Shown here one piece after another: positions 3,017 to 57,785 of a DNA stretch of 64,000 bases (the stretch's first letter is position 1; each line of letters starts with the position of its first letter). Both the position numbers and the translations under genes were made by a program. The DNA is from an uncultured Chthonomonadaceae bacterium (GTDB taxonomy: Bacteria > Armatimonadota > Chthonomonadetes > Chthonomonadales > Chthonomonadaceae). The notes below the pieces were generated by a model, which was given only the letters and a program-made list of their open reading frames with translations, searched no databases and was not told the DNA's origin. The stretch is taken from assembly GCA_963835065.1 (NCBI GenBank), contig CAWIEK010000053.1, positions 128,001 to 192,000 of the forward strand, read 5' to 3'.

Positions 3017-5573
3017 TTGCGACCTTTCAAAACAACAACCCACACGACTTTCGGCGTTCGACGCGCCTTGAGCAACGCTGTTTCGAGCCTGCGCGGGCGG
3101 GCATTGCTGGCCTGCATTTTGCCGGCAAGCGCGCTGCTCGTTGCCGCCGCCAGTCCGAGCCTGAGCGCGCATTCCAAAGGGGGAAGCGGCGCGTCCGGCA
3201 AGAACGTCGTCGGCAAAACGCCGGGCGGCGCGACAACCCCAAGCGCGCAGGCCGGGTTCGCGCATGATGTCTTGCCGATGCTGCAAAAATACTGCGTCAG
3301 TTGCCACACGGGCAAAGCGGCGCAGGCGGGCATTGATCTCGCGCACTACAAAACGGTAGACGGCGTACTCAAAGACCGCGACAACTGGGATCGGGTTGCG
3401 CAGGCCGTTTCGTCCGCGCACATGCCGCCGACAGGACTGCCCGCCCCGACCAAAGCGCAGCGCGATACGCTCGTCAACTGGGTACAGGCCACAACGTCCG
3501 CCGCCGATTGTAAATTGAACGATCCCGGCCACGTAACGCTTCGCCGCCTGAACCGCGCCGAGTACAACAACACCATTCGTGACCTGTGCGGCGTGGACAT
3601 TCATCCCGCCGATGCGTTTCCCAACGATGATGTCGGGTACGGTTTTGACAACATCGGCGACGTGCTTTCCATTTCGCCCCTGCTGATGGAAAAATACGTC
3701 AGCGCGGCGGAACAGGTGGCCCATGCCGCGTTCGAGAACCCGGACAAGTTTATCAAGCCGGAAAGTTTCACGTCCACGCGCCTGAACTATATCAGCCAGA
3801 GCAGCAACTTGGGCGACCATGCCAGCCTGTACACGACCAATTCCGAGGCGGGTGTAGATTACACGTTCCCGACAAACGGCGATTACATGCTGCGCTCCAT
3901 CGCCTGGCAGGACAAAGCCGGCCCCGATGCCGCCAAAATGGAACTGCGGCTGGATGGCAAGCCGCTGAAAGCGTTTGATGTGACCGCCGGAGCGCGTGAC
4001 CCGAAACCTTATGAAATGCGCGTCACGGTTCCCGCCGGGCAGCACCGTTACAGCGTGGTTTTTTTGAACGATTTCTACGATTCGTCCGAACCCAACAACC
4101 GCCGCAAAGGGAACCGGGACCGCAACCTCAACGTCAAGGCGCTGGAGATTGTCGGTCCCCTGCACAGCGACGATTCGGAATCCTTTTTGGCGAAGCAGTT
4201 GGGGCAGTTCGATCCCAACGACGCCACTCGTGACAGCGTGGCCCGCAAGTTCCTGACGGACTTCACCCGCCGCGCGTACCGCCGCCCGGTCACGAAAGAG
4301 GAAGTGGACGCCCTCCTGCGCTACGTAGACCTGGCGCACAAGCAGGGCGAGCCGTTCCGCAAGGGCATCGAGTACGCTATGACAGCCGCGATGTGTTCGC
4401 CCAACTTCCTGTTCCGCGTGGAAACCACGTCGCCCGCGCCCAAAGCCACAACGAAAAGCGCGACGCGAACGGTTAAGAACACGGGTAAATCGCATATCAA
4501 GACCGCCGCGCTGACGACGGCTGCGGACGGCGCGAGCGGCAAGTACCTGCTCGGCGATTACGCTCTGGCTTCGCGCCTGTCCTACTTTTTGTGGTCGTCC
4601 ATGCCGGACGATGAACTGTATGCCCTTGCCGCCAAAGGCAAATTGCAGGACAACACGATCCTGGCCGCGCAGGTGAAGCGGATGCTCAAAGACCCGCGCG
4701 CCCATGCCCTGTCCGACAACTTCGCGGGGCAATGGCTGCAATTGCGCAACCTGGCCGGTCTTTCGCCCGACACGGCCCGCTTCCCGGACTTCAACGACGG
4801 CCTGCGCCGCGCCATGAAAATGGAAACGGAACTTTTCTTCCAGTCCATCGTCGGTGAAGATAGAAGCATACTGGATTTTCTGGACGCCAAGTACACGTTC
4901 CTCAACGAACAGCTTGCGAAGCACTACGGCATTGAGGGCGTACAGGGCGGCAATTTCCGCAAGGTCGCGCTGCAAGGCAACCAGCGCGGCGGCATTCTGA
5001 CGCAGGCCAGCCTGCTCACCGTGACAAGCAACCCGACGCGCACCAGCCCGGTGAAGCGCGGCAAGTGGGTGATGGAAAACCTGTTGGGAACGCCCCTGCC
5101 GCCCGCGCCGCCCAATGTGCCCGCCCTTTCGGATGACAAGAAAGGTCCGCTTGTCGGAACCCTGCGGCAGCGCATGGAACAGCACCGCGCCAATCCCGCC
5201 TGCGCAAGTCTGCCATGCCCGCATGGACCCCATCGGCTTCGGCCTGGAGAACTTCGACGCGGTTGGCGGATGGCGCACCAAGGATGGCGAAACAACCCTG
5301 GATGCCAGCGGCGTTTTGCCTGACGGCGCGAAGTTCAACGGCCCTTCGGAACTGAAGCAGATACTTCTCAGTAAAAAAGGTGAATTTGTGCGCTGCCTGG
5401 CGCAAAAATTAATGACTTATTCGCTAGGACGTGGCGTAGAACGCACCGATAAGTGTACAATAGATACAATCACGCAGACAACCGCGAAGAACGGCTACAA
5501 ATTCTCCGCGCTCGTCACCGCAATCGTACAAAGCGATCCTTTCCGCAAGCAGCGGGGGGATGGAGGACTATAA
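3017..5573 (+). CDS. Planctomycete-type cytochrome c protein with DUF1587/1595/1592/1588/1585 domains; frameshift near 5209
   Basis: CVSCH heme motif, LRRLNRAEYNNTIRDL, LASRLSYFLWSSMPD, TSPVKRGKW; CASCH restored and MDPIGFGLENFD follows after a one-base shift. Confidence 0.88.
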
Positions 5574-5577
5574 CGAC

Positions 5578-6923
5578 ATGACTTTTGAACCGCTTTCACG
5601 ACGCACCTTTTTGCGCGGCGTCGGCACGGCAATGGCGCTGCCCATGCTGGAATCCATGCTGCCCCTGAGCGCCCTTGCGCAGTCGGCGGCCAAAGCAGCG
5701 CGCGTCAATCGCATGGCCTTCATCTTCGTGCCCAACGGCGTCAACATTCCCATGTGGACACCGGCTGCGGAAGGCGCGCTGGAATTGTCGCCCACGCTGG
5801 CTTCCATGTCGAGCGTGAAGAACAAACTCAACGTGTCTGACCGGACTGGCGCAGCACAATGCGTTCGCGCTTGGCGACGGCGGCGGCGACCATGCCCGCA
5901 GCGCGGCCACATGGCTGACCGGCTGCCACCCGCGCAAAACCGACGGCGCGGACATCAAGGCGGGTATCTCGGTTGACCAACTGGCGGCGATGAAAGTCGG
6001 GCGGCAGACGCCGTTCGCTTCCCTTGAATTGGGCTGTGAGCGCGGGGCGCAGTCGGGCAACTGCGATTCCGGTTATAGCTGCGCGTATTCGTCCAGCATT
6101 TCGTGGCGCGGCGACAGCACCCCGAACGCGCACGAGGTAGACCCCCGCGCCGTGTTCGAGCGGCTGTTCGGCAACAACGACCCGAACGAAACGGCGGAAA
6201 GCCGCATCCGGCGGCAGGGCTTCAAGCGCTCCATTCTGGACTTCGTGCTGGAAGACGCCAACAAATTGAAGAAGCAGCTAGGCGCGAAAGACCAGACCAA
6301 ACTGGACGAGTATTTCACGGGCGTCCGCGAAATCGAAGACCGGTTGGCCCGCGTGGAAAAAATGAATTCCGGCGCGTCCCTGAGCGCGAAAGCGCCTGCC
6401 GGCGTTCCGCCCGAATTCGGCGAGCATATCCGCCTGATGTTCGACATGATGACGCTTGCATATCCAGGCCGACCTGACCCGCGTCTGCACGTTCATGATC
6501 TGCAACGACGGCAGCAACCGCAACTACAAGGAAGTGGGCGTACCGGAAGGCCACCACGATATGTCGCATCACGGCGGCGACGCGCACAAGCAGGAGCAGG
6601 TTGCCAAAATCAACAAGTTCCACGCGGATCAGGTGGCGTACTTCCTGAACAAACTGGACAGCATCCACGAGCCGAACGGCACGCTGCTGGACAACTCGAT
6701 GGTCATGTACGGCGCGGGCATCAGCGACGGCGACCGCCACAACCACGACAACCTGCCGATTCTGCTGGCGGGCGGCGGCGCGGGCACGTTGAAGACGGGG
6801 CTGCACCAGAAGTTTGCGCCCGACACCCCGCTCAACAACCTGTTCCTGTCCCTGCTCGACCGCATGGGCGTCCACGCCGAAACCATCGGCGACAGCACCG
6901 GAAGACTGACAACCCTGCTCTAA
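5578..6923 (+). CDS. DUF1552 (HxxSHH) protein; frameshifts near 5836 and 6462
   Basis: Tat-like LSRRTFLRG, CDSGYSCAY, HHDMSHH, GTLLDNSM; the usual partner of the upstream DUF1592 gene. Confidence 0.88.
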
Positions 6924-7049
6924 GCCGTGTTGGTAAATCAGCGCGTGACAGCGCAGATACATTTAACCTTAATGCCGGAATAAGGTAACTCTTGTTCCGG
7001 CATTGGGGTTTAACCACAAGAATCAGAGTTGCAAAGGGAGATACCGAAT

Positions 7050-7319
7050 ATGCCACGAAAACAATATAGCCGTGAGGAAATCGCGCAACGCGCCAACGAA
7101 ATTTATCAGCGCGACATACGCGATAAGGTAATGCCGCAGCACAAAGGCAAGTTTCTGGTGCTGGACATTGAATCCGGCGATTACGAAATGGATGCTGATG
7201 ATATGAGCGCGGAAGAAACGCTGCAAGCGCGGCGACCTGACGGCGTTCTCTTCGGCCTGCGCATCGGCTACACGTCTGCGTACACGCTGGCGGGGCGCAT
7301 GGTGGAAGAAGCCGCATGA
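7050..7319 (+). CDS. Small hypothetical protein (DUF5678-like)
   Basis: MPRKQYSREEIAQRANEIYQRDIR...KGKFLVLDIESGDYE; RBS gggaga; paralog at 8850. Confidence 0.7.
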   Translation: MPRKQYSREEIAQRANEIYQRDIRDKVMPQHKGKFLVLDIESGDYEMDADDMSAEETLQARRPDGVLFGLRIGYTSAYTLAGRMVEEAA

Positions 7320-7412
7320 TTACCTGAGTCGTCAATGCCAATTGGAACAACAATTCCACTAAAAGTGGTCGGGCAAAGCAGTCAGTCTCAAACTATTGTG
7401 CCGGTTATAACG
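7316..7412 (+). pseudogene. Remnant 5' end of clan AA aspartyl protease-like gene
   Basis: ATGA overlap with upstream stop; reads MIT*VVNAN then, shifted, TTIPLKVVGQSSQSQTIVPVI; ends just before the expected DTG motif. Confidence 0.55.
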
Positions 7413-7733
7413 AGTATACGTATACAGAAGCCTTGGGAAAACGCTTTGTGGATTACGAAAAGTTATTGATATATGATTATTAATACAATGAAATTTAGAG
7501 AGCAGGTAAATTTTCGATTTAATATTCAATTAAGTAATAATAAATTTGTTTTTGGTGACATGCGGCTTAAAAGATATACATAACTGGCCTGATTTCAACT
7601 TCAAGAGTAAGCATTATCTCTGCATGTGTCAGATTGATACAACAAGCCCTTGCTTGTGACAGTGGACAATCAACATACATCACAAATGCCTTTGAGAAAA
7701 TCCGGATGGTCTTAACAAATTAAAAATTACTTC

Positions 7734-7762
7734 TTGACAGGTTGCCCGTCTTGTAGTATAAT
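7734..7762 (+). promoter_or_regulatory. Perfect consensus sigma70 promoter
   Basis: TTGACA (7734-7739), 17-nt spacer, TATAAT (7757-7762); A-rich UP-like tract upstream. Confidence 0.85.
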
Positions 7763-7865
7763 CCCGGATGGACTTACGCAAGGAGGGGCATATTATCAAT
7801 TTAATATGGCATATATGATTGGATATATATGAATTTGATAAATTTATTTAAAACAGGAGAAAGAA

Positions 7866-8213
7866 ATGAATAAAACGTATGCATATAGGGTTGGTCAACG
7901 TTTCAGGCTAAACCCTCTTTCGTATGAGCATAGTGAATGCGAAATAATGGTTATCTATTTTAGTGAGCCAGCAAGAACATACACTAATGTTCACGATCCT
8001 TCAGCTTATGTCAACAAAATTATCAGGGAGCGGTTGGAGTATACAGATGCATTTCCAGAATCGGATAATCAAGCAAGGGTTAGTGTTCGTGAAAGTGATA
8101 TAGAAACAATCGTTGTTATTTATGAAAATGCTAAATTTGAAGTGTGGGACTACAAAAAACCATATTCAATAAATTGGATATTGATTGATGATTTTAATGT
8201 TACTTATCATTAA
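7866..8213 (+). CDS. AT-rich hypothetical protein
   Basis: 115-aa ORF with RBS aggaga, downstream of the consensus promoter; no family recognised. Confidence 0.6.
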   Translation: MNKTYAYRVGQRFRLNPLSYEHSECEIMVIYFSEPARTYTNVHDPSAYVNKIIRERLEYTDAFPESDNQARVSVRESDIETIVVIYENAKFEVWDYKKPYSINWILIDDFNVTYH

Positions 8214-8289
8214 ATATCAGAGGAAACGCAAAATACAATTTTAAATATAATTGAGGCAGACTAACTCCTCGTAGAAAACTGTAGCAGGA

Positions 8290-8334
8290 CTGGTGTGTAA
8301 TGAAGGAAGGCACACTTCTTGCGCCTTCCTTTTG
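8290..8334 (+). repeat. Direct repeat copy 1 (-10-like box plus hairpin)
   Basis: ctggtgtgtaatgaaggaaggcaca-cttct-tgcgccttccttttg; similar to 9931-9977. Confidence 0.6.
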
Positions 8335-8375
8335 TTCTGGCTGTTTTTAAGCACAGGAAAATACAAATAGACATC

Positions 8376-8618
8376 ATGCTTGACGCGGAATTGGAACAAA
8401 GACTTCGGTACAAAGTTGCTCGTGGGGAGTATTCTTCTGTGGAGGCGGCTTTGAATGAAGCCCTGCGCCGCCTTCTGGAACCGGAGGCGGAACTTGCCAA
8501 TCCGCTTCCGTTAGAGGAGATGCGCCACGAAATTATGATTGGCGTGGAGCAGTCAGATAGGGGTGACGTTGTGCGGTTTGATGCCGAAGCCATCAAAGCC
8601 GAAGGACGGCGGTTATAG
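8376..8618 (+). CDS. ParD-like (CC2985-type RHH) antitoxin, no toxin partner
   Basis: LDAELEQRLRYKVARGEYSSVEAALNEALRRL...EIMIGVEQSDRG...DAEAIKAEGR. Confidence 0.7.
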   Translation: MLDAELEQRLRYKVARGEYSSVEAALNEALRRLLEPEAELANPLPLEEMRHEIMIGVEQSDRGDVVRFDAEAIKAEGRRL

Positions 8619-8636
8619 CTGTCTCAACACCCGGAA

Positions 8637-8750
8637 ATGTCTGTTGCGGAAGGTAAGACTATGGCGAACTTCCTTAGTGACTTCATCGGGTGCGTTGACA
8701 GCAGCGAGGCTTATCGTGAAGGTTCTTGGCTCTGCGATATTTGCTGAAGG
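8637..8750 (+). pseudogene. Fragment resembling the C-terminus of a small antitoxin-like protein
   Basis: MSVAEGKTMANFLSDFIGCVDSSE, then loss of frame (FAEGM appears in another frame). Confidence 0.35.
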
Positions 8751-8849
8751 GATGGGAACGCGCGTATGGAGACAACAAGCGGGACAATCGGCTTATGATG
8801 TATTAATGAAATGAAAACACCTGACGATTACTGCATGGAGGAACAAATA

Positions 8850-9245
8850 ATGCTTGTGCGCTCACCCCGCTACTCGAAAGAAGAGTTTGCCCGACGCGGC
8901 GATGAAATTTATAACCGCGATATTCGCTCACAGGTGGATACGGAGCAGAACAAAGGCAAGTTCGTCGCTATTGATATCGAAACCGGCACATGGGAAATGG
9001 ACGCCAGCGAAATTGAGGCAGGCAACCGTTTGTGCCAGCGAATTCCTGACGCGCAAACGTGGATGATACGGGTTGGCTACGGCTACATTCGCCGTTTTCG
9101 GCTTGCACAGAATACGCAACCACAGAAAAGGGTTACTTCCATTTCCGCAGAAGAGGCACAGAAGTGGATGAACGATTTTCCACAAAGAAGAGACAGGTTC
9201 GTTGCCGCTATTCGAGAAGCCAAGAATCGGGACTTACCAAAGTGA
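8850..9245 (+). CDS. DUF5678-like protein with an apparently unrelated C-terminal extension
   Basis: RBS ggagg; RYSKEEFARRGDEIYNRDIR...KGKFVAIDIETG aligns with 7050-7319; about 45 extra aa after GYIRRF. Confidence 0.65.
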   Translation: MLVRSPRYSKEEFARRGDEIYNRDIRSQVDTEQNKGKFVAIDIETGTWEMDASEIEAGNRLCQRIPDAQTWMIRVGYGYIRRFRLAQNTQPQKRVTSISAEEAQKWMNDFPQRRDRFVAAIREAKNRDLPK

Positions 9246-9257
9246 GGGGGCAGAACG

Positions 9258-9467
9258 ATGAGTGACCCTGATAGTCAATCTACGCCGCAAAGCATTAAGT
9301 TAGCCGAACAGGACATTGACGATCCTCTGCCGTTAGAGGAGATGCGCCGCAGACTGATGATTGCTGAGGAACAGGTACAGCAAGGATTGGTCAGTCCGCT
9401 GGACATGGACGCCATCATTGCGGAAGGCCATAAGATACTGGCCGCTCGACACGCTGCCAAGTCGTAA
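9258..9467 (+). CDS. ParD-like antitoxin C-terminal half lacking the RHH domain
   Basis: PLPLEEMR...EQ..G.V...D.DAI.AEG shared with 8376-8618, including the DNA match ccgttagaggagatgcgcc. Confidence 0.55.
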   Translation: MSDPDSQSTPQSIKLAEQDIDDPLPLEEMRRRLMIAEEQVQQGLVSPLDMDAIIAEGHKILAARHAAKS

Positions 9468-9496
9468 AGAATCCGCATAGTTTTTGGAGGTGTGCT

Positions 9497-9915
9497 ATGA
9501 ACCGGGTTTCCATTCTCGCCCATTTTGACGGGGCACATATTCTTCTGGACGAACCCTATTCTTTAGAACCCAATGCGAAACTCCTTGTCACCGTGTTGCC
9601 GGAACAAGATGAAGAACGCGAAGATTGGCTGCGCCTGCCGAGCAAAGGCTTGCAGACGCTTATGGCGACGACGAGCCGGAGTATCCGCTTTCGTGTATTC
9701 GTGAAATGAACAAGGTGGATTTAGCGGCGGCGTATCAGCAGATGGCTCAGGACAAAGCGCGGGAAATGGAAGCGCGGGATTGGGTTGAGGAAACGCAGGA
9801 TCGCGCCGAAGCGGTTGAAGGTATCCGGCGCGGTTGGGAAGCATGTGAGCAGGGGCGGATGCGTCCGTTTCGGGAGTTTGCCGCCGAGCAACGCGCCAAA
9901 TTCAACCTGCCCTAA
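9497..9915 (+). CDS. Chimeric antitoxin-like ORF (three fused modules); frameshift near 9638
   Basis: RBS ggagg; AHFDGAHILLDEP...AYGDDEPEY, then DLAAAYQQMAQDKAREMEARDW, then AVEGIRRGWEACEQGRMRP. Confidence 0.55.
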
Positions 9916-9930
9916 TAACTTAAAACGGGG

Positions 9931-9977
9931 CTGGTGTATAATGAAGGGAAGCGCAGGCTGTTTGCGCTTCCTTTTTG
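9931..9977 (+). repeat. Direct repeat copy 2 (TATAAT plus hairpin), upstream of hydrolase
   Basis: ctggtgtataatgaagggaagcgca-ggctgtt-tgcgcttcctttttg. Confidence 0.6.
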
Positions 9978-9993
9978 CATAAAGGAGACTTTT

Positions 9994-11019
9994 ATGAGCC
10001 GATATTTGCGGGCGGCGCTGTTGGGCGCAGCCGCGTTTGCTATTCCTGCCGCCCTTAATCTTGTGCTGGCGCGGCAGCGACGTGACCTTGTCAGCGGTTT
10101 GTCCGGCGAGGGCTGCGAACACTACTGGCCGTTCGGCAACATCTATTATGAGGCGCGGGGCGAGGGAACGCCGGTTGTGCTGATGCACGGCATCGGGGCG
10201 GGCGAGTCGTCGTTCGAGTGGCGGCGTAATTTCGATGCGCTGGCCGAACACCATAAAGTGTATGCTTTCGATCTGCCCGGTTTCGGCAAGTCGGCGCGGC
10301 GCGATATGACCTACACGGCGGATTTGTACGTGACGGCCTTGCAGGACTTTTTGCGGGATGTCGTGGGCGAACCGGCAATGGTAGTCGCCAGCAGTCTGAG
10401 CGGCGCGTATGCCGTACAGTTAGCCGCCATGCGCCCGGAATTAATTACGCGCCTAGTGTTGAATTGCCCGACCGGATTGGAAAAACTGCGCGACCACAAT
10501 CCCCTTGCCGGACGGGCGGCGTATGGCCTGTTCAGCCTGCCCGCTATCGGCGCGTCCCTGTACAATGGCATCGCCTCGTACAATTACATTGAGAGTTACC
10601 TGCGCGAAAACGTGTATGTAGATTCCGTGCAGGTCACGCCTGCGCTTGTGGAGCATTATTACCGGTACGCGCACCAGCCCAACGCGCAATTCGTGCTGCG
10701 CTCCTTCCTGTCCGGCCTGCTCAACTGCGATATTACCGACACGTACCCGCGCCTGACGCAGCCGATACTGGTCTGTTGGGGCCGCTACGCCCGCGAAACC
10801 CCGGTGGAAAACGCGCAGCGCTTCCTCAAAGACAATCCCAACGCCCGCCTGCGCATCTTCGAGAACAGCGGCCTGCTGCCCAATGATGAGGAGTGGGAGG
10901 ATTTCAACGACGCCGTTCTCACCTTCCTGAGCGCGAAGGACCTGCCGCAATTGCTGCCCTCACCTGTGGCTGCAATCCCGTCCGGCACGTCGCAGGAACA
11001 CACATCCAAGAACGTGTAG
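9994..11019 (+). CDS. Alpha/beta fold hydrolase
   Basis: RBS aaggag; VLMHGIG, DLPGFGKS, nucleophile elbow ASSLSG. Confidence 0.9.
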   Translation: MSRYLRAALLGAAAFAIPAALNLVLARQRRDLVSGLSGEGCEHYWPFGNIYYEARGEGTPVVLMHGIGAGESSFEWRRNFDALAEHHKVYAFDLPGFGKSARRDMTYTADLYVTALQDFLRDVVGEPAMVVASSLSGAYAVQLAAMRPELITRLVLNCPTGLEKLRDHNPLAGRAAYGLFSLPAIGASLYNGIASYNYIESYLRENVYVDSVQVTPALVEHYYRYAHQPNAQFVLRSFLSGLLNCDITDTYPRLTQPILVCWGRYARETPVENAQRFLKDNPNARLRIFENSGLLPNDEEWEDFNDAVLTFLSAKDLPQLLPSPVAAIPSGTSQEHTSKNV

Positions 11020-13287: not shown

Positions 13288-15970
13288 ATGACTGCATACG
13301 AGACAATCGAACAAACGCCGGCCTCGCGCCCTGATGCCGCCGCAAACTTCGCCCAAACCTTTGCTCCCTCGGACTTATCGGCTCGCCCTGTTCGCGCGCC
13401 GGATTACAAGGCGGAAAGTGAAGCGCTTGCGTCCCTGGCCCGCGAACTGGTTACGGCTCCGACGCAGGTTCTGCAGAAACTGTGCGAACTGGCGCTTGAA
13501 CTCTGCGGCGCTCAAGCGGCGGGTATCCGCCTTGAGGAAGAGGAGACGGAAACCGGTGTTTTACATTGGCGCGCGCTGGCGGGCGAGATGGATTCCTGCT
13601 TGCAGGCGATTACGCCCGACGATTTAGCGTCGTATGGCGTCACCGACGATTGCCGCGCGCCCCGGCTTTTCTCCCGGCCCGAAGCGCCTGTCCCGTATGT
13701 CCAGGCCATTTCGCCGCTGATTTCTGAATTCCTGCTTATTCCCTTTTGCCCGGACGACAAACCCGTTGGAACGCTGTGGGTGGTCGGCAGTTGGAATGAC
13801 CGCCGGTTTGACTCGGAAGATGCGCGTCTGCTTACAAACCTCAGCCAATTTGCAGGCGCCGCGTACAAGGTTTTGGGCATACAAGCAGATGTGCAGGCGA
13901 TCAACACCCGGCTTGCCGCAGAAGCCGCGTTGCATAAAGCGGTGGAAGAGGAGCGACGCGCAAGTGAGGCGGAACAGGCGCTGAAAGCAAGCGAACTCAA
14001 GTTCCGCTCCCTGTTTGAAAATGCGCGAGAAGCCATCGGCATCGCCACCAAAGGCCGCGTTGTCTTTGTGAATCCGGCGTATGCCCGGCTGCTGGGGTAT
14101 GCGTCTCCTGATGAAATGATCGGACTTTCGGCACTGGAAACGGTTGCTCCCAAAGATCAGCCTCGCCTGATTGAAATGGCGCACAAGCGCAACGCGGGCG
14201 AAGACGCGCCTTTCACGTATGAGTACCGGGGCCGCAAGAAAGACGGCACGGAGTGTGACCTGGAAAACTATGTTTCCAGTTATGAACAGAACGGGCAAAT
14301 TTATACGGTCGTCACCACCCGCGACATCACCGCGCGCAAGCAGGACGAGATCGCCCGCCAGTTTCTTACTGAAGCCTCAGCGGTGCTGGCCTCGTCCCTT
14401 GACTACGAGCAGACCTTACAACAGGTGGCCGATCTTGCCGTGCCCCACATTGCCGATTGGTGCGGGGTGGATATACGCGAAGAGGACGGCTCCATCAGCC
14501 AGCTTGCCGTCGCGCATGTCAATCCTGAAAAGGTAAGGTGGGGCCATGAACTCAGAAAGCGCTATCCGCCCAATCCGAATGATCCGCGCGGGCTGCCGGG
14601 CGTACTGCGCAGCGGACAGGCCGAGATTTATTCTCACATTCCCGACGAACTTCTTGTTGCGAGCGCGCGCGACCCGGAGCATCTGGAACTGATGCGGCAG
14701 ATCGGGCTGGAACTCGCTGATGATTGTTCCCATTGTGGCGCGGGAACGCATCTTAGGAGCCATTACCTTTGTAGCTACGGACGAGTCGGGGCATCACTAT
14801 ACCGAAGCCGACCTTGAACTTGCGCAGGGACTTGCGTCCCGCGCCGCGCTTGCCATTGACAATGCCCGCCTGTATCGCGCGGCGCAGGACGAACTGACCG
14901 AGCGGCGGCGCGTACAGGCCGCGCTGCTTGCCAGCGAGGAGCGGTTCCGATTCGCCCTCGCCAATTCCAGCATCATCGTTTATACGCAGGACCTCGACCT
15001 CCGCTATACGTGGGTTTATTATGGAGCGCTGAGTGGGGAAGACAGCAATGTGTACGGCAAAACCGACGCCGATCTTCTGCCCGCCGAAGACGCCCTTCCG
15101 CTGATGGAAATCAAGCGCCGGGTGCTGCAAACGGGTATCGAAGAGCGTCATACTGTTCGCGCCACGCTGCCTGGACAGGAACCGCTTTATCTGGAAACGA
15201 GTTTTGCGCCCCTGCGGGATGCGGCAGGAAATCTTATCGGCATTACAGGAACCGCCAATGATATTACGGAGCGGAAAAAGGCGCAGGATATTCTGGCGCA
15301 GCATCAGGCGGAAATCGAAGCCCTCAACGCGCGCCTGCGGCGCTCCATGCGCGAAACCCATCACCGGGTGAAGAACAATCTGCAAGTCATCACGGCGCTG
15401 ATAAACATGCAGCAGATGCAGTATGAGGAGCAGGTTCCCACGTCGGAACTGCAGCGGCTGACGCAGCACATCCGGGCGCTGGCTTCCATTCACGACCTGC
15501 TGACGCATCAAGCGCAGACCAATGCCGAAGTGACGGACATTTCAGTTGAGGACGTGATGGACAAACTGATGCCGGCGGTGCAGAGTATGGCTGTGGGGCG
15601 CAGCATTACCTTTGCCATAGAGGATATGCGCCTGCCCGTCCGCCAGAGTACGACGTTTGCCGTTTTAGTCAACGAAATGGTTTCCAATGCGCTCAAGCAC
15701 GGAGCCGGGGCGATTCACGTCGGCTTTCGGGTCGAGGGCGATACAGCCCTGCTGGAAGTGCTGGACGAGGGGCCGGGGTTCCCGCCGGACTTCAACCCGG
15801 AGCGCGCCGCCAATACCGGCCTTGATTTGATCGGCTCCCTGTCCCGGATGGATATGCGCGGCAGCGCGCGGTATGAGAACCGCGCAGAAGGCGGGGCGCG
15901 CGTGGTGGTCGAATTTCCCGTGCCGTCGCTCCTGAAAACGCCGGGAGAACAGTACGGCGAATCCTCTTGA
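13288..15970 (+). CDS. Cytoplasmic GAF/PAS sensor histidine kinase (HisKA_2 type); frameshift near 14710
   Basis: GAF-PAS-GAF-PAS order; H-box ETHHRVKNNLQ; NEMVSNALKHG, DEGPG, GLDL. Confidence 0.88.
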
Positions 15971-52887: not shown

Positions 52888-53117
52888 ATGAACGCGCATC
52901 GTATCGAAACTGTTCTGTCGGATGAGGGATCGTGACTTTGCGCGGCCTTCCTTTCAAATCAGGGACGGCATTGGAAATCATTATTCTCGAACGCGATACT
53001 GGAACAGAGAAGGACGCAGACGAGGCAGAGCATGTCGCCGAGTGGCTGAACGCCTCGAAGCGGTCACTGCAAGATGTATGGGTCAACGACGAGGATGCCG
53101 TTTATGACAACCTATAG
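52888..53117 (+). CDS. Antitoxin-like protein; frameshift near 52928
   Basis: RBS ggagg; MNAHRIETVLSDE/IVTLRGLPF...WVNDEDAVYDNL; overlaps a PemK/MazF-like start. Confidence 0.55.
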
Positions 53118-53146
53118 CCGAGGCGAGGTTATTTTGGTGACATTTC
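53104..53146 (+). pseudogene. Truncated PemK/MazF-family toxin (first 14 codons)
   Basis: MTTYSRGEVILVTF, then abrupt switch to opposite-strand methylase sequence. Confidence 0.55.
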
Positions 53147-53444
53147 GGTCACGGGCGCATCAAGGGGAGCGCAGGCAAGGGCAAGTTCTTCCCGCGAGAA
53201 GGGCGTCAGGCCAATGGCTTCGGAAAGCGCGTCTTTGTGGCTGCGGAGGACGCGAAAGAAGTTGACGGCCTCGCGATCCAGATCGTTGTAGGTTTCCACG
53301 GGCGAAGGCGGACGGTTGAGCAGAACGGCTGCCGACCCGCCGAACACGTCGCAGAAGTGAGTTGTCTGCGGGAGCAGGGGCAGCAGCCAATCCAGATGAC
53401 TGTACTTCCCGCCATACCAAGCCAAACGCGATCATCTTTTCCAT
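53147..53444 (-). pseudogene. Truncated Dam-like (D12 class) adenine methyltransferase
   Basis: WYGGK, DVFGGSAAVLLN, ETYNDLD; only about 100 aa, no DPPY motif; frameshift near 53421. Confidence 0.8.
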
Positions 53445-53486
53445 GCAACCACTATTCACCAAGAAAAATATTACTTGCAATTGTAC

Positions 53487-54161
53487 TTAAGGAGCTAGAG
53501 CCGTACATAACTCCTGAATACGAGTAGTATTGCCGCCAACTTCACGTTGAATAGCGGAAATCATATCTTCGGAAGACATACCTCTGTTCGGAATATTGCG
53601 AAGCCAATCAAGTCTATTGATGATACGAGTTTTCTCAGTTTCACCAAGTTCCTGCAACAAATATATGCAGGCATCCACGTGAAATTCATGATTTCTAGGT
53701 GCTGGGCTTTGTTGTATTTGAGCCAACAAATAAGATTTTAGATTCTCCGATAACCCTTGACCGCTCCCCCTAACATCGGCCTTATGAATTCGGACCAGCC
53801 AAGGCATACTTTTAACTTCAGGCCAGTTCCCATCAACGGGTACAGGAATGAAATTACGTCCCGCCCGCAAAGAGTGTGCTACTTCTCGTCTGCAATAATC
53901 ACTATTGAAGTATGAGTGAGTGGCAAGACAAATGAAATGGGTTGCTTGGCTCGCCGCAGGTAGAAACACATTCTCGAAAGAGACACCAGGAGGTATCTCA
54001 CTGTTATCAAGAAAAACTCGTTGCCCCACGGCACGTAAGGTGTCGTACAAGTCCTTTGTAAGTTGATCCGCTTCTCCATGACGATAGGAGAGGAATATGT
54101 CGTATGGTTCTGTTGCTTGATTGGGATTGAAAACAATGTTTTCCGAGGCGCGATCTGTCAT
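53487..54161 (-). CDS. TIR domain protein (possibly the C-terminal part of a TM-TIR fusion)
   Basis: YDIFLSYRH, RVFLD, SYFNSDYCRREV with catalytic-position Glu; own RBS aaggag. Confidence 0.85.
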   Translation of the reverse strand: MTDRASENIVFNPNQATEPYDIFLSYRHGEADQLTKDLYDTLRAVGQRVFLDNSEIPPGVSFENVFLPAASQATHFICLATHSYFNSDYCRREVAHSLRAGRNFIPVPVDGNWPEVKSMPWLVRIHKADVRGSGQGLSENLKSYLLAQIQQSPAPRNHEFHVDACIYLLQELGETEKTRIINRLDWLRNIPNRGMSSEDMISAIQREVGGNTTRIQELCTALAP

Positions 54162-54998
54162 ACTATCTCCTTCAGGTACACGAGGCGAACCGATTATTAT
54201 ATCGTATAACCACACATAGACTTTAACAACAAACTCAATAATTGTCCAGAATTTCCAGGGTACAACCTTGTTATCTTGGGCAGGGCGGCAACGGAGGAAA
54301 TTTACGAAAAAGTACGTAAATATTAATTTCATAATCGAAAAACTCACACGCATCCAATCAGACATAGCATTATCAGTGCCAAAATGAACTCCTATAGTAT
54401 AATGAATAGAGTCTAAAAGTTCAAAACAAGAGTATGCAAGAAGTACAACTTTTAATGTCGCATTGACTACTTGGTGTTTGGCGTCGTTTGTTTGATAAAG
54501 TTGAACAAGACCTGCACCAGTTTTCCAGTAGCCAAAAACAGTCGTTATAAAGCCTGTCCACTCACATCAATATTCGCTGAACTTCTCGCCTGGAATCCAT
54601 TTCTCAGTTGATGCATTAGATATGCTACCAGCCAATGTAAGAATTGCAAGGAAAATGAACGCTCCAACATCAATTGGTGCGATGCTGTTCGCTAAGGTAC
54701 CACTTTGTTCTTCTTCCGCCTCACGGCTCAAAAGAACACCTATGTATATTAGTAAGTAACCTCCGAACGCAGGTATGAGTTCGGCAGATGCTGGTCTCTT
54801 AATCTGAAAAAGTATGGTGTCGTAATATACTACCAATAAGGCGTAATGGAGAGCAAAAAGAGCAAAAGCGGTGACAATCCTTGATTTTCTATTAGGTTTA
54901 GGTATTACAACCGCTCCCCACATAGTAAGGAGGACACATATAACGCAAGAAAGCCATCCGAAAGTGGTCGAATAATGAATTGCATTGCGGCTATCCAT
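54162..54998 (-). pseudogene. Multi-pass (about 7 TM) membrane protein with internal TGA, in frame with TIR
   Basis: Frame stays open after TGA 54569-54567 (CEWTGFITTVFGYW...) and runs into the TIR start without another stop. Confidence 0.6.
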
Positions 54999-55370
54999 TG
55001 TTTATATACCTTAGAAGCAGAATATGCATGAAGACATACTATTGCATTGCTAATGCTGTGCTTGTCAATCGGTCATTGCTATAGCGCGAAGCACTAGCTT
55101 CGACAATAAACAATCGGATATACTACAAAAAAATACCCAGATCGTAATGTATAACATAGATATTAAAGACATACATGGCAAAATCTGAACTATTGTCTTC
55201 AGCATAGCCTCCAGTAGTCTAAATTGTGTGTACATTGAGACGCAAGCTTACTGCGCAAAGCCTTCGTCGTCTTCATCAAGAAATTCCACGTACAACTGCC
55301 GGTTTCCTTCCCATTGCATAACGAAATTTGAAAAATTTTCAAAAACTTTATGGACGTATGCCTTTACGGT

Positions 55371-56903
55371 CTACAAGTAAGATGCTTCACTATGTTCGAA
55401 CAAACGTAACGAAACAAAGCCCGCTTCCTGCAGAGCCTCTACGGAAATCGGCAGTGACTCTAAAGCGCGAGGTTCCACTTTGATGGCCCCGGAACCGTAG
55501 GATTTGCCGACACACGCGAGATTGGCAAGCACGGAAGGGTGCTGCAGCAGACGCCATACGCGGCTGATGGTTTCCGGGTCGTCTTGGCGTGGATAGACGC
55601 ACAGGAAACTGGTGAGCGGGAGAACATTGGCCTCGTTGCGGATAAAGCGCACGTTGCGGCGGCCTAAATACGCGAACAGGAATGGAGGTACGCGCCGTTT
55701 TTCCATGCTGTACCAGGGCTTGCGCTGGCTGATGAGAGCGCGTTGCGGCAGTCCGCGTTTTTCGCCTTCCAGCAAATACGCCTGAACCGAAGCCGGAAAA
55801 TCCTCTAGCGGGCGGGCATCCGGCGCAAACAGCAGAGTGGGCCGGCCTTCCTGTTCCAGTTGTTCCCAATCGTCGGGCGTGAAAACTTCCATTGTCACAT
55901 CACGGGTACGCCCGACCGCAGGCCGCAGGAACGCTTCGGGTATCTGTAATTCTTGTGCCTGCGCGCGGGTCAGGAAAAAGAATTCGTTGTCTCCTGTCGC
56001 TATGCCGCGCATTACGGCGCAGAAGTCGCCTAAGCGGGGGCAGCTCTCGTTATGGATACGCGGTACGCGGGAAAAACCGGTTTGCAAGCCTTCCGTTAGA
56101 AGCCGTGAATGGACGGAAATATCGGCGCGAGTTTCCGGCGGCAGGCCGTCCACAATCCAGTTTCGCAGGGCATCCGTCCACGCTTCCTGCACCTGCACCC
56201 ACAGAAACATGGGACGCGGTTCCGCCTTGCGTATCAGGAAGACAAGCGCGTTTGTGTCCACGCCGGGAAATGGAGAGGCTTGGGGTTCAAATGTAATCAC
56301 CGCATCCAAGCAGTAGTTTGTGGTAATCCACTGCCACAACGGACTGGCCGATTTCCCCTCGCACACATCGGCAGGCAGAATGAACGCCAGCCGTCCGCCG
56401 TCACGCAGCAGCGTGAGCGCCCGCAGCAGAAAATACACATGCAGCCCGGCGCGTCCGTCAAGCGCTTTGCCGAGCATTTGTTGACACCATGTTTTCAGCG
56501 TTTGTTTCGCGTCGAGGGAAAGCCGATGATGCCGAATGTAGGGCGGATTGGCAACAATGGCATTATACGTGTCATGGGGTGGATCAAACACAAAATCCCG
56601 AACTTCCACGCCCGCAAGGTCATTCTTAATTTGTTCGTCGCCGCTAGTTTTCCGCAGAATATCGGCGTCCAGTTCCGTTCCCATCAGCCGCACTTCGCGT
56701 CCCAACCGTTGTGCTTCCTGTTTGCCTGCCCGAAAGAACGCGCCCTCCCCAACTGCCGGATCGAACAGATGCTCGCTTCCTACTGCAAGAACATAAGCAG
56801 TCATTGCTTCCGCAACCCAGGCGGGCGTCCAGAACTGCCCCTTTTGCCGCAATACCTCTCGCGCTTCTCCCGTACCCGGCAGTTTTTGATGGTATATCGT
56901 CAT
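55371..56903 (-). CDS. N6-adenine DNA methyltransferase (type II, gamma order), no intact endonuclease
   Basis: GQFWTP, FDPAVGEGAF (motif I), IVANPPY (motif IV). Confidence 0.9.
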   Translation of the reverse strand: MTIYHQKLPGTGEAREVLRQKGQFWTPAWVAEAMTAYVLAVGSEHLFDPAVGEGAFFRAGKQEAQRLGREVRLMGTELDADILRKTSGDEQIKNDLAGVEVRDFVFDPPHDTYNAIVANPPYIRHHRLSLDAKQTLKTWCQQMLGKALDGRAGLHVYFLLRALTLLRDGGRLAFILPADVCEGKSASPLWQWITTNYCLDAVITFEPQASPFPGVDTNALVFLIRKAEPRPMFLWVQVQEAWTDALRNWIVDGLPPETRADISVHSRLLTEGLQTGFSRVPRIHNESCPRLGDFCAVMRGIATGDNEFFFLTRAQAQELQIPEAFLRPAVGRTRDVTMEVFTPDDWEQLEQEGRPTLLFAPDARPLEDFPASVQAYLLEGEKRGLPQRALISQRKPWYSMEKRRVPPFLFAYLGRRNVRFIRNEANVLPLTSFLCVYPRQDDPETISRVWRLLQHPSVLANLACVGKSYGSGAIKVEPRALESLPISVEALQEAGFVSLRLFEHSEASYL

Positions 56904-56989
56904 AAGCCGCGCGTTCCAAACTTACGCTCTTGTGCGCCAACGCTCAACGCTTTCCCTTCTGCAACTTTGCCGTTGTCGAACTGAAAATG

Positions 56990-57412
56990 TTAGCGAGTCC
57001 AGTCTTCCCACTTCAAACCAACAATGTTACGGAAATCGCGCTCGTTTTGCGTTATCAAGAGAGCGTCGTTTACCAAAGTGATCGCAGCAATTTTCAGGTC
57101 GGGAGAACTGATACGGCGGTGTTGTTTACGGAGTTCGTCGTAGCGCATAGCGGCTTCCGAATCAAATGGCAAGACAGAAAGGTTGCAGTAATTCTCTAAC
57201 TGTGCCAGCAAGCGAGCATACTGAATTACTTGCGGCGCGGTACTCTTTGTCGCTGCAATGGCTGCTGTCCACCCACGAATTTGTTCCTCATAGGAGATAA
57301 CGGTAACGTGAACATCGGACGCAGGAATGTTAGCGAGGCGAGTAAGAAGCCGCCCCGCTTCGGCATTACGCCGCTCCAAAATGCTGATAGGGTTCGTGTC
57401 AAGAATAACCAC
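56990..57412 (-). CDS. vapC: VapC-family PIN toxin
   Basis: ILDTN, ISYEE, DLKIAAI, TQNERDF. Confidence 0.9.
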   Translation of the reverse strand: MVILDTNPISILERRNAEAGRLLTRLANIPASDVHVTVISYEEQIRGWTAAIAATKSTAPQVIQYARLLAQLENYCNLSVLPFDSEAAMRYDELRKQHRRISSPDLKIAAITLVNDALLITQNERDFRNIVGLKWEDWTR

Positions 57413-57619
57413 TCAGAGTGTTTCCTCCTCGGCTTCGCCAACCTGCGATTCGCGCCACTCGCGCCCCAGGCGCATCGCTTCTTCGTAAAACGGGTCGTCC
57501 GAGAAGGTGCCGACAATGGCCTGCCAACCACGCTTTTCCCGCGCTGGCGGTTGCGCAAAGCGCTCCTCAAACTGGTGTTGCAACGTATCGAAGCGAGTTT
57601 CCAATGTGTGTAGTCTATC
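57413..57619 (-). CDS. Cognate antitoxin (VapB-like)
   Basis: Small acidic ORF abutting vapC; GWQAIVGTFSDDPFYEEAMRLGREWR. Confidence 0.7.
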   Translation of the reverse strand, partial: DRLHTLETRFDTLQHQFEERFAQPPAREKRGWQAIVGTFSDDPFYEEAMRLGREWRESQVGEAEEETL

Positions 57620-57785
57620 TTCTAGTGTTTCGGCTGCCATGTGGATATTCTCCTCGGTTCGCGCGCAGTTCCCTATCTGCTATCGTGACTATCTGAAAAA
57701 CGGTCTTACAAGGTTTATTATACCCGGCGTCTGATGCAGAGAAGAAAACAATCATGAGCGGCCTGCGACGGCGGCATGTGGGGCG

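Follow-up and report, generated by a model that had tools for sequence, protein, structure and literature searches.

The stretch of DNA analysed here (the window: 64,000 nucleotides, C53:128001-192000 of assembly G000) carries, at 8361-9915, pieces of six antitoxins from five families, one toxin-antitoxin (TA)-like two-gene module and a tail without a family. Three of the antitoxin pieces are fused at 9497-9915. The fusion is real, unusual within the genome, common to close relatives and well explained in its origin. We think it moderately probable that the array is what is left of several stacked type II TA operons after successive deletions had removed their toxins, that its in-frame joins were filtered by addiction, and that the product was retained for a while, probably in the role of a trans-acting antitoxin, with decay under way in some lineages. 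Throughout, C denotes contigs of G000 (8.0 Mb, 71 contigs, 92% complete), L loci, P proteins and G002 a genome of the same genus.

The array lies in a low-GC stretch (GC 0.41-0.53 against about 0.59), bordered on one side by the end of a long operon (3017-6923) and on the other by an alpha/beta hydrolase gene (9994). Segment-wise tblastn finds eight antitoxin-like pieces in 8367-9912, the largest of 138 TA-like clusters in the genome, the others having at most four; given this rank, the size of the array is above chance. Queries for the census were 52 of the 59 upstream ORFs of 63 toxin matches, seven spurious ones having been removed by eye, plus seven that were added. It undercounts, as the tail-family query (one of the seven added) was mis-framed and gave no matches. 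The features are as follows.

7050-7410, + strand: upstream hotspot member, a second gene of the 8850 family with a broken aspartic protease start, 89% to its G002 orthologue
8287-8340, + strand: leader copy 1, an extended -10-like box (TGTGTAAT), hairpin (z -3.5) and T run; direct repeat D4 with 9928-9955
8367-8618, + strand: ParD-like (CC2985-type) antitoxin, toxin deleted; TIGR02606 E 2e-5, below cut-off
8631-8768, + strand: VapB-like antitoxin, C-terminal half; parent precedes a PIN toxin at C59
8850-9098, + strand: small gene of a multi-copy family (33 tblastn matches in the genome), protease partner deleted
9099-9245, + strand: foreign tail fused in frame to the 8850 gene, C-terminal part of a 61-aa small-gene family
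9258-9467, + strand: second ParD-like antitoxin, C-terminal half, behind 13 further codons with their own ATG and ribosome-binding site (RBS)
9497-9712, + strand: module 1, near-complete 78-aa antitoxin, 87%/78% to P0014; parents precede a PemK-like toxin
9713-9792, + strand: module 2, MazE-like C-terminal (predicted toxin-binding) segment, residues 41-65 of the 76-aa antitoxin of L052
9784-9915, + strand: module 3, C-terminal half of a ribbon-helix-helix-type antitoxin, 93% to P0005 residues 37-79
9928-9980, + strand: leader copy 2, TGTATAAT, hairpin (z -3.8) and T run, before the hydrolase gene at 9994

In ORF 9497-9915 each piece maps to a different parent family, which bears out the earlier note's view that three stretches in it resemble C-termini of different antitoxin families. 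The small ORFs and the three motifs that it had picked out (AYGDDEPEY, DLAAAYQQMAQD..EA..W and AVEGIRRG..GRMRP) were found in place, the motifs lying in a single stop-free frame (9625-9915) that is shifted from the 9497 start. Parents of module 1 have a PemK-like toxin at L039, L041, L042 and eight of 12 further loci, not at L038; against PF02452 (cut-off 23.1) these toxins score 29 bits at L042 and 19.3 at L041. A MazF motif is found in 35 of the 43 parent loci of module 2, some of which are duplicates, and the L052 toxin reaches 89.5 bits with PF02452. The parents of module 3 precede toxins of the ParE/RelE fold, with ParE in L044, L055 and L056 (PF05016, 36.5 bits for L044 and 34.8 for L056). 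Modules 2 and 3 have lost their DNA-binding halves, and module 2 also lacks the last approximately 10 residues of the antitoxin. In the AlphaFold model of P0001, a homologue with all three modules, a short beta region is combined with helices, the chain being mostly helix (pLDDT 86, pTM 0.40), and modules 2 and 3 lie within one long helix (73-118). Foldseek with this model returned nothing at E 0.001, and a PDB sequence search with P0001 gave no useful match.

The window assembly has a one-base frameshift near 9635. A contig of run X2, equal in length (2510) to the one with P0001, aligns with 9298-10200 at about 95% identity; it has an additional base after 9635, and its frame is open. The frameshift may be an assembly error, because single-base indels are common in both assemblies: in the 72.5 kb alignment of G000 with G002, 34 of 48 frame-breaking indels are single bases. 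Relative to G002, the window has three one-base insertions (5206, 5835 and 6464) that disrupt conserved genes; these too are probably errors of the assembly. A further frameshift was seen in an otherwise conserved gene near 14800.

Upstream of the fusion, the ParD-like gene at 8367 matches the antitoxin before ParE at C21/C30 at 39%, that at C54 at 38% and P0012 at 87%. Its homologous start codon is ATA at 8367, with an ATG at 8376, and a TAG stands at 8616 where P0012 has Leu. The second ParD half matches the first ParD-like gene at 48% and residues 36-84 of the C21 antitoxin at 43%. Both pieces (8367-8618 and 9258-9467) resemble genes before ParE toxins at C21, C30 and C54, so they were rightly taken for ParD-like from the start. 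What had been described as an antitoxin-like fragment is a VapB-like C-terminal half (tblastn E 5e-6 to residues 61-106 of the gene before the C59 PIN toxin, itself 48 bits with PF01850). The description needs one correction, since 8638-8768 lies in the frame of the ParD-like gene behind its TAG; the piece shares that frame to about 8740 and is then shifted.

The label DUF5678-like for the 8850 gene has to be dropped: PF18929 has no match to 8850-9098 and none over cut-off genome-wide, and the 8850 family has no Pfam or NCBIfam match. The gene that normally follows members of this family encodes a clan AA aspartic protease, which narrowly misses the TIGR03698 cut-off (E 1.6e-13); in G002 the orthologue is followed by the protease gene. 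Among the pieces of the array it is the one whose homologues have a protease as partner in place of an adjacent toxin. By its sequence context the gene is TA-like, and its antitoxin status is putative. The family (7050-7319 and 8850-9098 in the window, 33 matches in G000) was seen to be mostly protease-paired and distributed like TA modules. The foreign tail stands as the C-terminal part of a 61-aa family fused in frame, 55% to C53:439401 and 40% to C57:141131; 9099-9245 matched no Pfam or other family. Further upstream, the G002 orthologue of 7050-7410 keeps a longer part of the protease gene. Between that hotspot member and the array lies an AT-rich insert (7420-8260) that is not in the G002 locus; it contains a perfect sigma-70 consensus (7734-7762) as well as an ORF of 115 aa (7866-8213), for which neither a family match nor a paralogue was found.

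The segment-wise HMM search that had been suggested as a check gave no assignment, as every piece stays below the curated Pfam and NCBIfam cut-offs. The best family score is that of TIGR02606, the ParD family (E 2e-5, 24.4 against a cut-off of 46.2 bits). The parent antitoxins are below cut-off too (NF050104, 19.3 of 65 bits; NF048017, 16.7 of 50 bits). The antitoxin identity of the pieces thus rests mainly on the gene context of their parents: homologues of modules 1, 2 and 3, of both ParD-like pieces and of the VapB-like piece lie directly upstream of known toxin families. The array itself is toxin-free, as first proposed. In tblastn with 72 toxin or partner queries, 7000-10000 contained no toxin remnant (best E 0.006, opposite strand), and hence no adjacent cognate toxin of the kind that marks a type II TA system.

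Homologues of the fusion can be ordered by accretion, from a single module through two and three to four, with every join in frame. P0014 is module 1 only; P0013 has modules 1 and 2 and ends in the native tail of module 2; P0001, P0004, P0003 and the window have modules 1, 2 and 3; P0012 has ParD and modules 1-3 in 238 aa. The protein search also found P0006. P0001 (139 aa) and P0004 (133 aa) are unbroken, and P0003 (89 aa) lacks the N-terminal part; two of six three-module copies are full and unbroken, and four are broken or shortened. P0003, P0004, P0012 and P0013 are known from protein sequence alone, and the toxin behind P0013 is a prediction. Segment mapping identified pieces of at least two library families in nine of 270 fetched proteins, seven of which are the fusion series, each a single-member cluster. 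No further three-module fusion was found among the best 150 of 446 in the 50%-cluster search, and P0012 is the only longer form of the ParD-like gene that was found. JGI metagenome contigs (34 loci) and GTDB genomes (22 loci) contain the parent modules and, of fusions, only the partial one of G002. Three homologues of module 1 or module 3 (P0205, P0209 and P0212) have extra antitoxin-like segments, weakly assigned; P0205 is an Ignavibacteriota record. Their sequences suggest that such fusions recur in other lineages. The P0209 insert did not align with the ParD fusion of C49 described below.

The earlier note had named absence from relatives, together with a lack of transcription, as evidence against its proposal; the fusion is in fact present in relatives. 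Within the family it occurs in two of 42 genomes, G000 and, shortened, G002. At the same spot G002 has two protease modules, both broken, and then a ParD scrap in frame with modules 2 and 3; module 1 is absent and there are stop codons upstream. On contigs X1-1 and X2-7 the same operon end is followed by the modules in a different order, which fits a spot where gain and loss have recurred. In G001 the upstream operon is not followed by an array, and the hydrolase neighbourhoods of G001, G002, G016, G020 and G025 show no synteny.

Seven junctions attach a piece that has no start of its own, and all seven are in frame. These are (i) ParD to the VapB half, with the TAG just before; (ii) the 8850 gene to its tail; (iii) module 1 to module 2; (iv) module 2 to module 3, long form; (v) the same, short form; (vi) ParD to module 1 in P0012; and (vii) the ParD scrap to module 2 in G002. 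Four of the seven were found independently of frame, for which chance would give 1/81 if the junctions were independent, which they are not; the other three were found because they are in frame. The module 2/3 junction falls on shared ALEW/AEA motifs and exists in two forms 21 nt apart. Microhomology alone can therefore give the frame of this junction, without selection. It is not evident at the remaining junctions, those of module 1/2, ParD/VapB and gene/tail among them.

Fusions that still precede a live toxin exist elsewhere in the genome. A fusion of a PIN fragment with module 2 stands directly before an intact MazF (C53:213374-213890), and a 133-aa fusion of ParD with a ParD C-terminal half stands before an intact ParE (C49:72300-71636; L132:1103-1501). 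These two are likely the intermediate state, with the toxin still intact. A weaker case, L047 in G053, may be a third toxin-bearing fusion (tail assigned by eye, PIN E 3e-4). The surroundings of the first (C53:212907-213902; L131:3953-4909) make up a second collapsed TA pair: a VapB-like gene, a PIN toxin with a stop and a deletion in frame with a MazE-like C-terminal piece, and then the intact MazF.

Between the window and the X2 fusion, both toxin-free through to the hydrolase, there are 15 synonymous and nine nonsynonymous changes (omega about 0.15, or 0.20 with transition weighting; p 2e-5 to 2e-4), and the stop codon has changed to another stop. By this dN/dS check, which had been called for, the fusion as a whole may be under constraint, and the middle part looks neutral. 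By part, synonymous and nonsynonymous changes number 7 and 1 in the N-terminal part of module 1, 1 and 5 in 9640-9792, and 7 and 3 in module 3; the middle matches the neutral expectation, unlike the ends (Fisher p 0.017, a post hoc contrast). Against G002, module 3 has dS 0.90, dN 0.07 and omega 0.08 (hydrolase, 0.09), and module 2 has omega 0.45, not significant. All these estimates come from two pairwise comparisons. The last toxin was probably lost before G000 and G002 diverged, because the sequence after the module 3 stop, a toxin-free junction, is common to both. Low omega after that loss suggests some remaining use.

A close cognate toxin exists in G000 for just one of the three modules. 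A MazF 76 kb away is 79% identical to a partner of module 2, and its own antitoxin is a fragment behind a stop codon. The toxin of module 1 was not found in G000, and the ParE matches there are only 32-40% identical to the cognate toxins of module 3. Matches over cut-off in G000 number 13 for ParE, 16 for PemK and 30 for PIN. At E 1e-10, neither G001 nor G002 (80% complete) had a close MazF of the module-2 type.

In most antitoxins of these kinds it is the C-terminal part that binds the toxin, and a cell that loses this part while expressing the toxin dies. If a deletion extends from one toxin gene into the antitoxin that follows, it would therefore be survivable only if the C-terminal part stayed translated. 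Where the antitoxin start was removed with its toxin present, landing in frame under an upstream start would rescue the cell, so that only in-frame joins would survive while the downstream toxin remained. We propose that module 1 would have been joined to module 2 with MazF downstream, then to module 3 with ParE downstream, after which ParE would have been lost. The product would then have been kept for some time by purifying selection, its most likely role being to neutralise a toxin in trans, such as the MazF 76 kb away, and would be decaying in some lineages. The locus has undergone repeated deletion, because the parents are intact TA operons elsewhere and the homologues run from one to four modules; to this extent the earlier note was right to think of a TA graveyard made by repeated deletions. 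If addiction acted as a filter, there should be in-frame fusions whose downstream toxin is intact; two such fusions are present in the genome.

For the in-frame joins, survival of deletions that occurred with the downstream toxin in place is a simpler explanation than collection. A maintained poly-antitoxin would nevertheless be conceivable, although we consider it rather unlikely: its tails for PemK-like, MazF and ParE toxins, with the ParD and VapB pieces nearby, would shield the cell against incoming or resident TA systems, and the frameshift would be an assembly error. In keeping with a shield are the omega of 0.15-0.20 after toxin loss, the unbroken P0001 and P0004, a leader with a -10 box, RBS-bearing starts and the toxin matches over cut-off in G000. 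The frequency of single-base indels (34 of 48 in the alignment, three in window 5200-6470) would accommodate the frameshift, and orphan antitoxins as anti-addiction modules are an established proposal (PMC7354431). However, piece composition and order vary between relatives and the fusion is in two of 42 family genomes; the middle part looks neutral and module 2 lacks its last residues; ParE matches are distant and the module 1 toxin was not found; several pieces contain stops or shifts, and the G002 copy is shortened behind stops. Of the broad antitoxin shield first suggested, the sharing by relatives and the low omega stand, whereas a single close cognate toxin, a neutral middle and the shortened G002 copy count against it. 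A collapse of the TA stack filtered by addiction could also be a route to multi-specific antitoxins, yielding a selected shield in which one chain grows from P0013 through P0001 to P0012 and has tails for three or four toxin families; this we regard as a tentative and rather doubtful extension.

It is less probable still that the array is a purely neutral graveyard, formed by microhomology-guided deletions between similar acidic helices, with the low omega stemming from diverged intact parents or from recombination. The microhomology at module 2/3 with its two junction forms, the mosaic synonymous divergence, the stops and truncations in G002 and the four broken or truncated copies out of six would fit, and the low omega at the ends could reflect recombination with intact parent alleles. 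Yet the module 1/2, ParD/VapB and gene/tail junctions have no evident similarity, window and X2 differ mostly at synonymous sites despite the same junction form and toxin-free flank, and in-frame fusions stand before live toxins elsewhere in the genome. A fresh graveyard would not be expected to give an omega of 0.15-0.2 against a relative. Very improbable is a site-specific cassette array, integron-like or of another type, by which TA modules would be inserted and reordered. Module order does vary among relatives' contigs at the spot, and a hairpin leader is shared by unrelated modules, but this leader reads as promoter plus hairpin, no recombinase or transposase lies beside the array, a general repeat search gave no repeated site between modules, and in-frame fusions of half genes would be unexplained. 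The integron form was rejected: the genome, 92% complete, has no integron integrase over cut-off (TIGR02249, best 124 of 265 bits).

Chromosomal type II TA modules cluster, are repeatedly acquired at one spot and lose the toxin first, according to the main text of PMC13617665, which counts 185 toxin-only against eight antitoxin-only losses in Photorhabdus. The array resembles such eroded hotspots in clustering, repeated acquisition and toxin-first loss; it differs in that deletions join antitoxin halves of different families in one frame. When that main text was searched for the words 'fusion', 'chimer', 'in-frame' and 'orphan', none of them occurred. Orphan antitoxins are described in PMC7354431 as remnants or anti-addiction modules whose common use is still to be demonstrated. 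Like the chromosomal CcdA of Erwinia chrysanthemi treated there, the array has no linked toxin and might neutralise toxins in trans; unlike the known cases, which are whole single antitoxins or whole TA systems, it strings together C-terminal pieces of three or four families, and its neutralising activity is putative. With the type II antitoxins MazE (NF050104-like), ParD CC2985 (TIGR02606), RelB/RHH-like (NF048017) and VapB-like, the pieces share homology to genes before MazF/PemK, ParE and PIN, but they have no linked cognate toxin, lack the DNA-binding halves in modules 2 and 3 and fall below cut-offs. The locus works like an eroded TA spot with orphan antitoxins; it is not a TA system, and any anti-addiction role is putative. 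In the open-access literature that was searched we came upon no multi-family in-frame antitoxin concatemer, though a report of one may exist elsewhere.

It is an open question whether orphan antitoxins are products of decay or serve as anti-addiction devices, and this locus lends itself to a direct test: the 139-aa chain is natural and has tails for three toxin families, and forms with one, two and four modules are on record, as are toxin-bearing intermediates. If it rescued cells from several toxins, it would be a natural poly-antitoxin. If it did not, it would still show that addiction can shape deletion junctions and make chimeric genes, a prediction open to counting across genomes.

Leader copy 1 is likely the promoter or 5' leader of the array, judging from its sequence, and leader copy 2 was likely left by a further deleted module. 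The leader is absent before the hydrolase orthologues of G001 and G002, whose upstream DNA differs; the hydrolase gene of the window has gained a TA-type leader as its upstream region (9928-9993). The common leader consists of a TG-TATAAT-like box, GAAG, a hairpin with varying but paired stems, a T run and an RBS. It precedes unrelated TA-like modules at C53:395539, C45:13987, C57:141242, C59:3617, C35:11116, C30:15690 and C42:42672, the sites on which the search profile was seeded, and is also present in G002 and G015. It could be a shared promoter/attenuator or a module boundary. Near-identical or identical TA-like loci occur on paired contigs (C21/C30, C9/C15, C13/C63 and C57/C58), possibly through duplicated assembly or strain mixture. 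A second low-GC island lies at 53074-57640 of the window, with a DNA-methyltransferase-like gene (55371-56903), a TIR-like ORF (53487-54365, by eye), a methylase fragment and an intact antitoxin-PIN pair (56990-57640).
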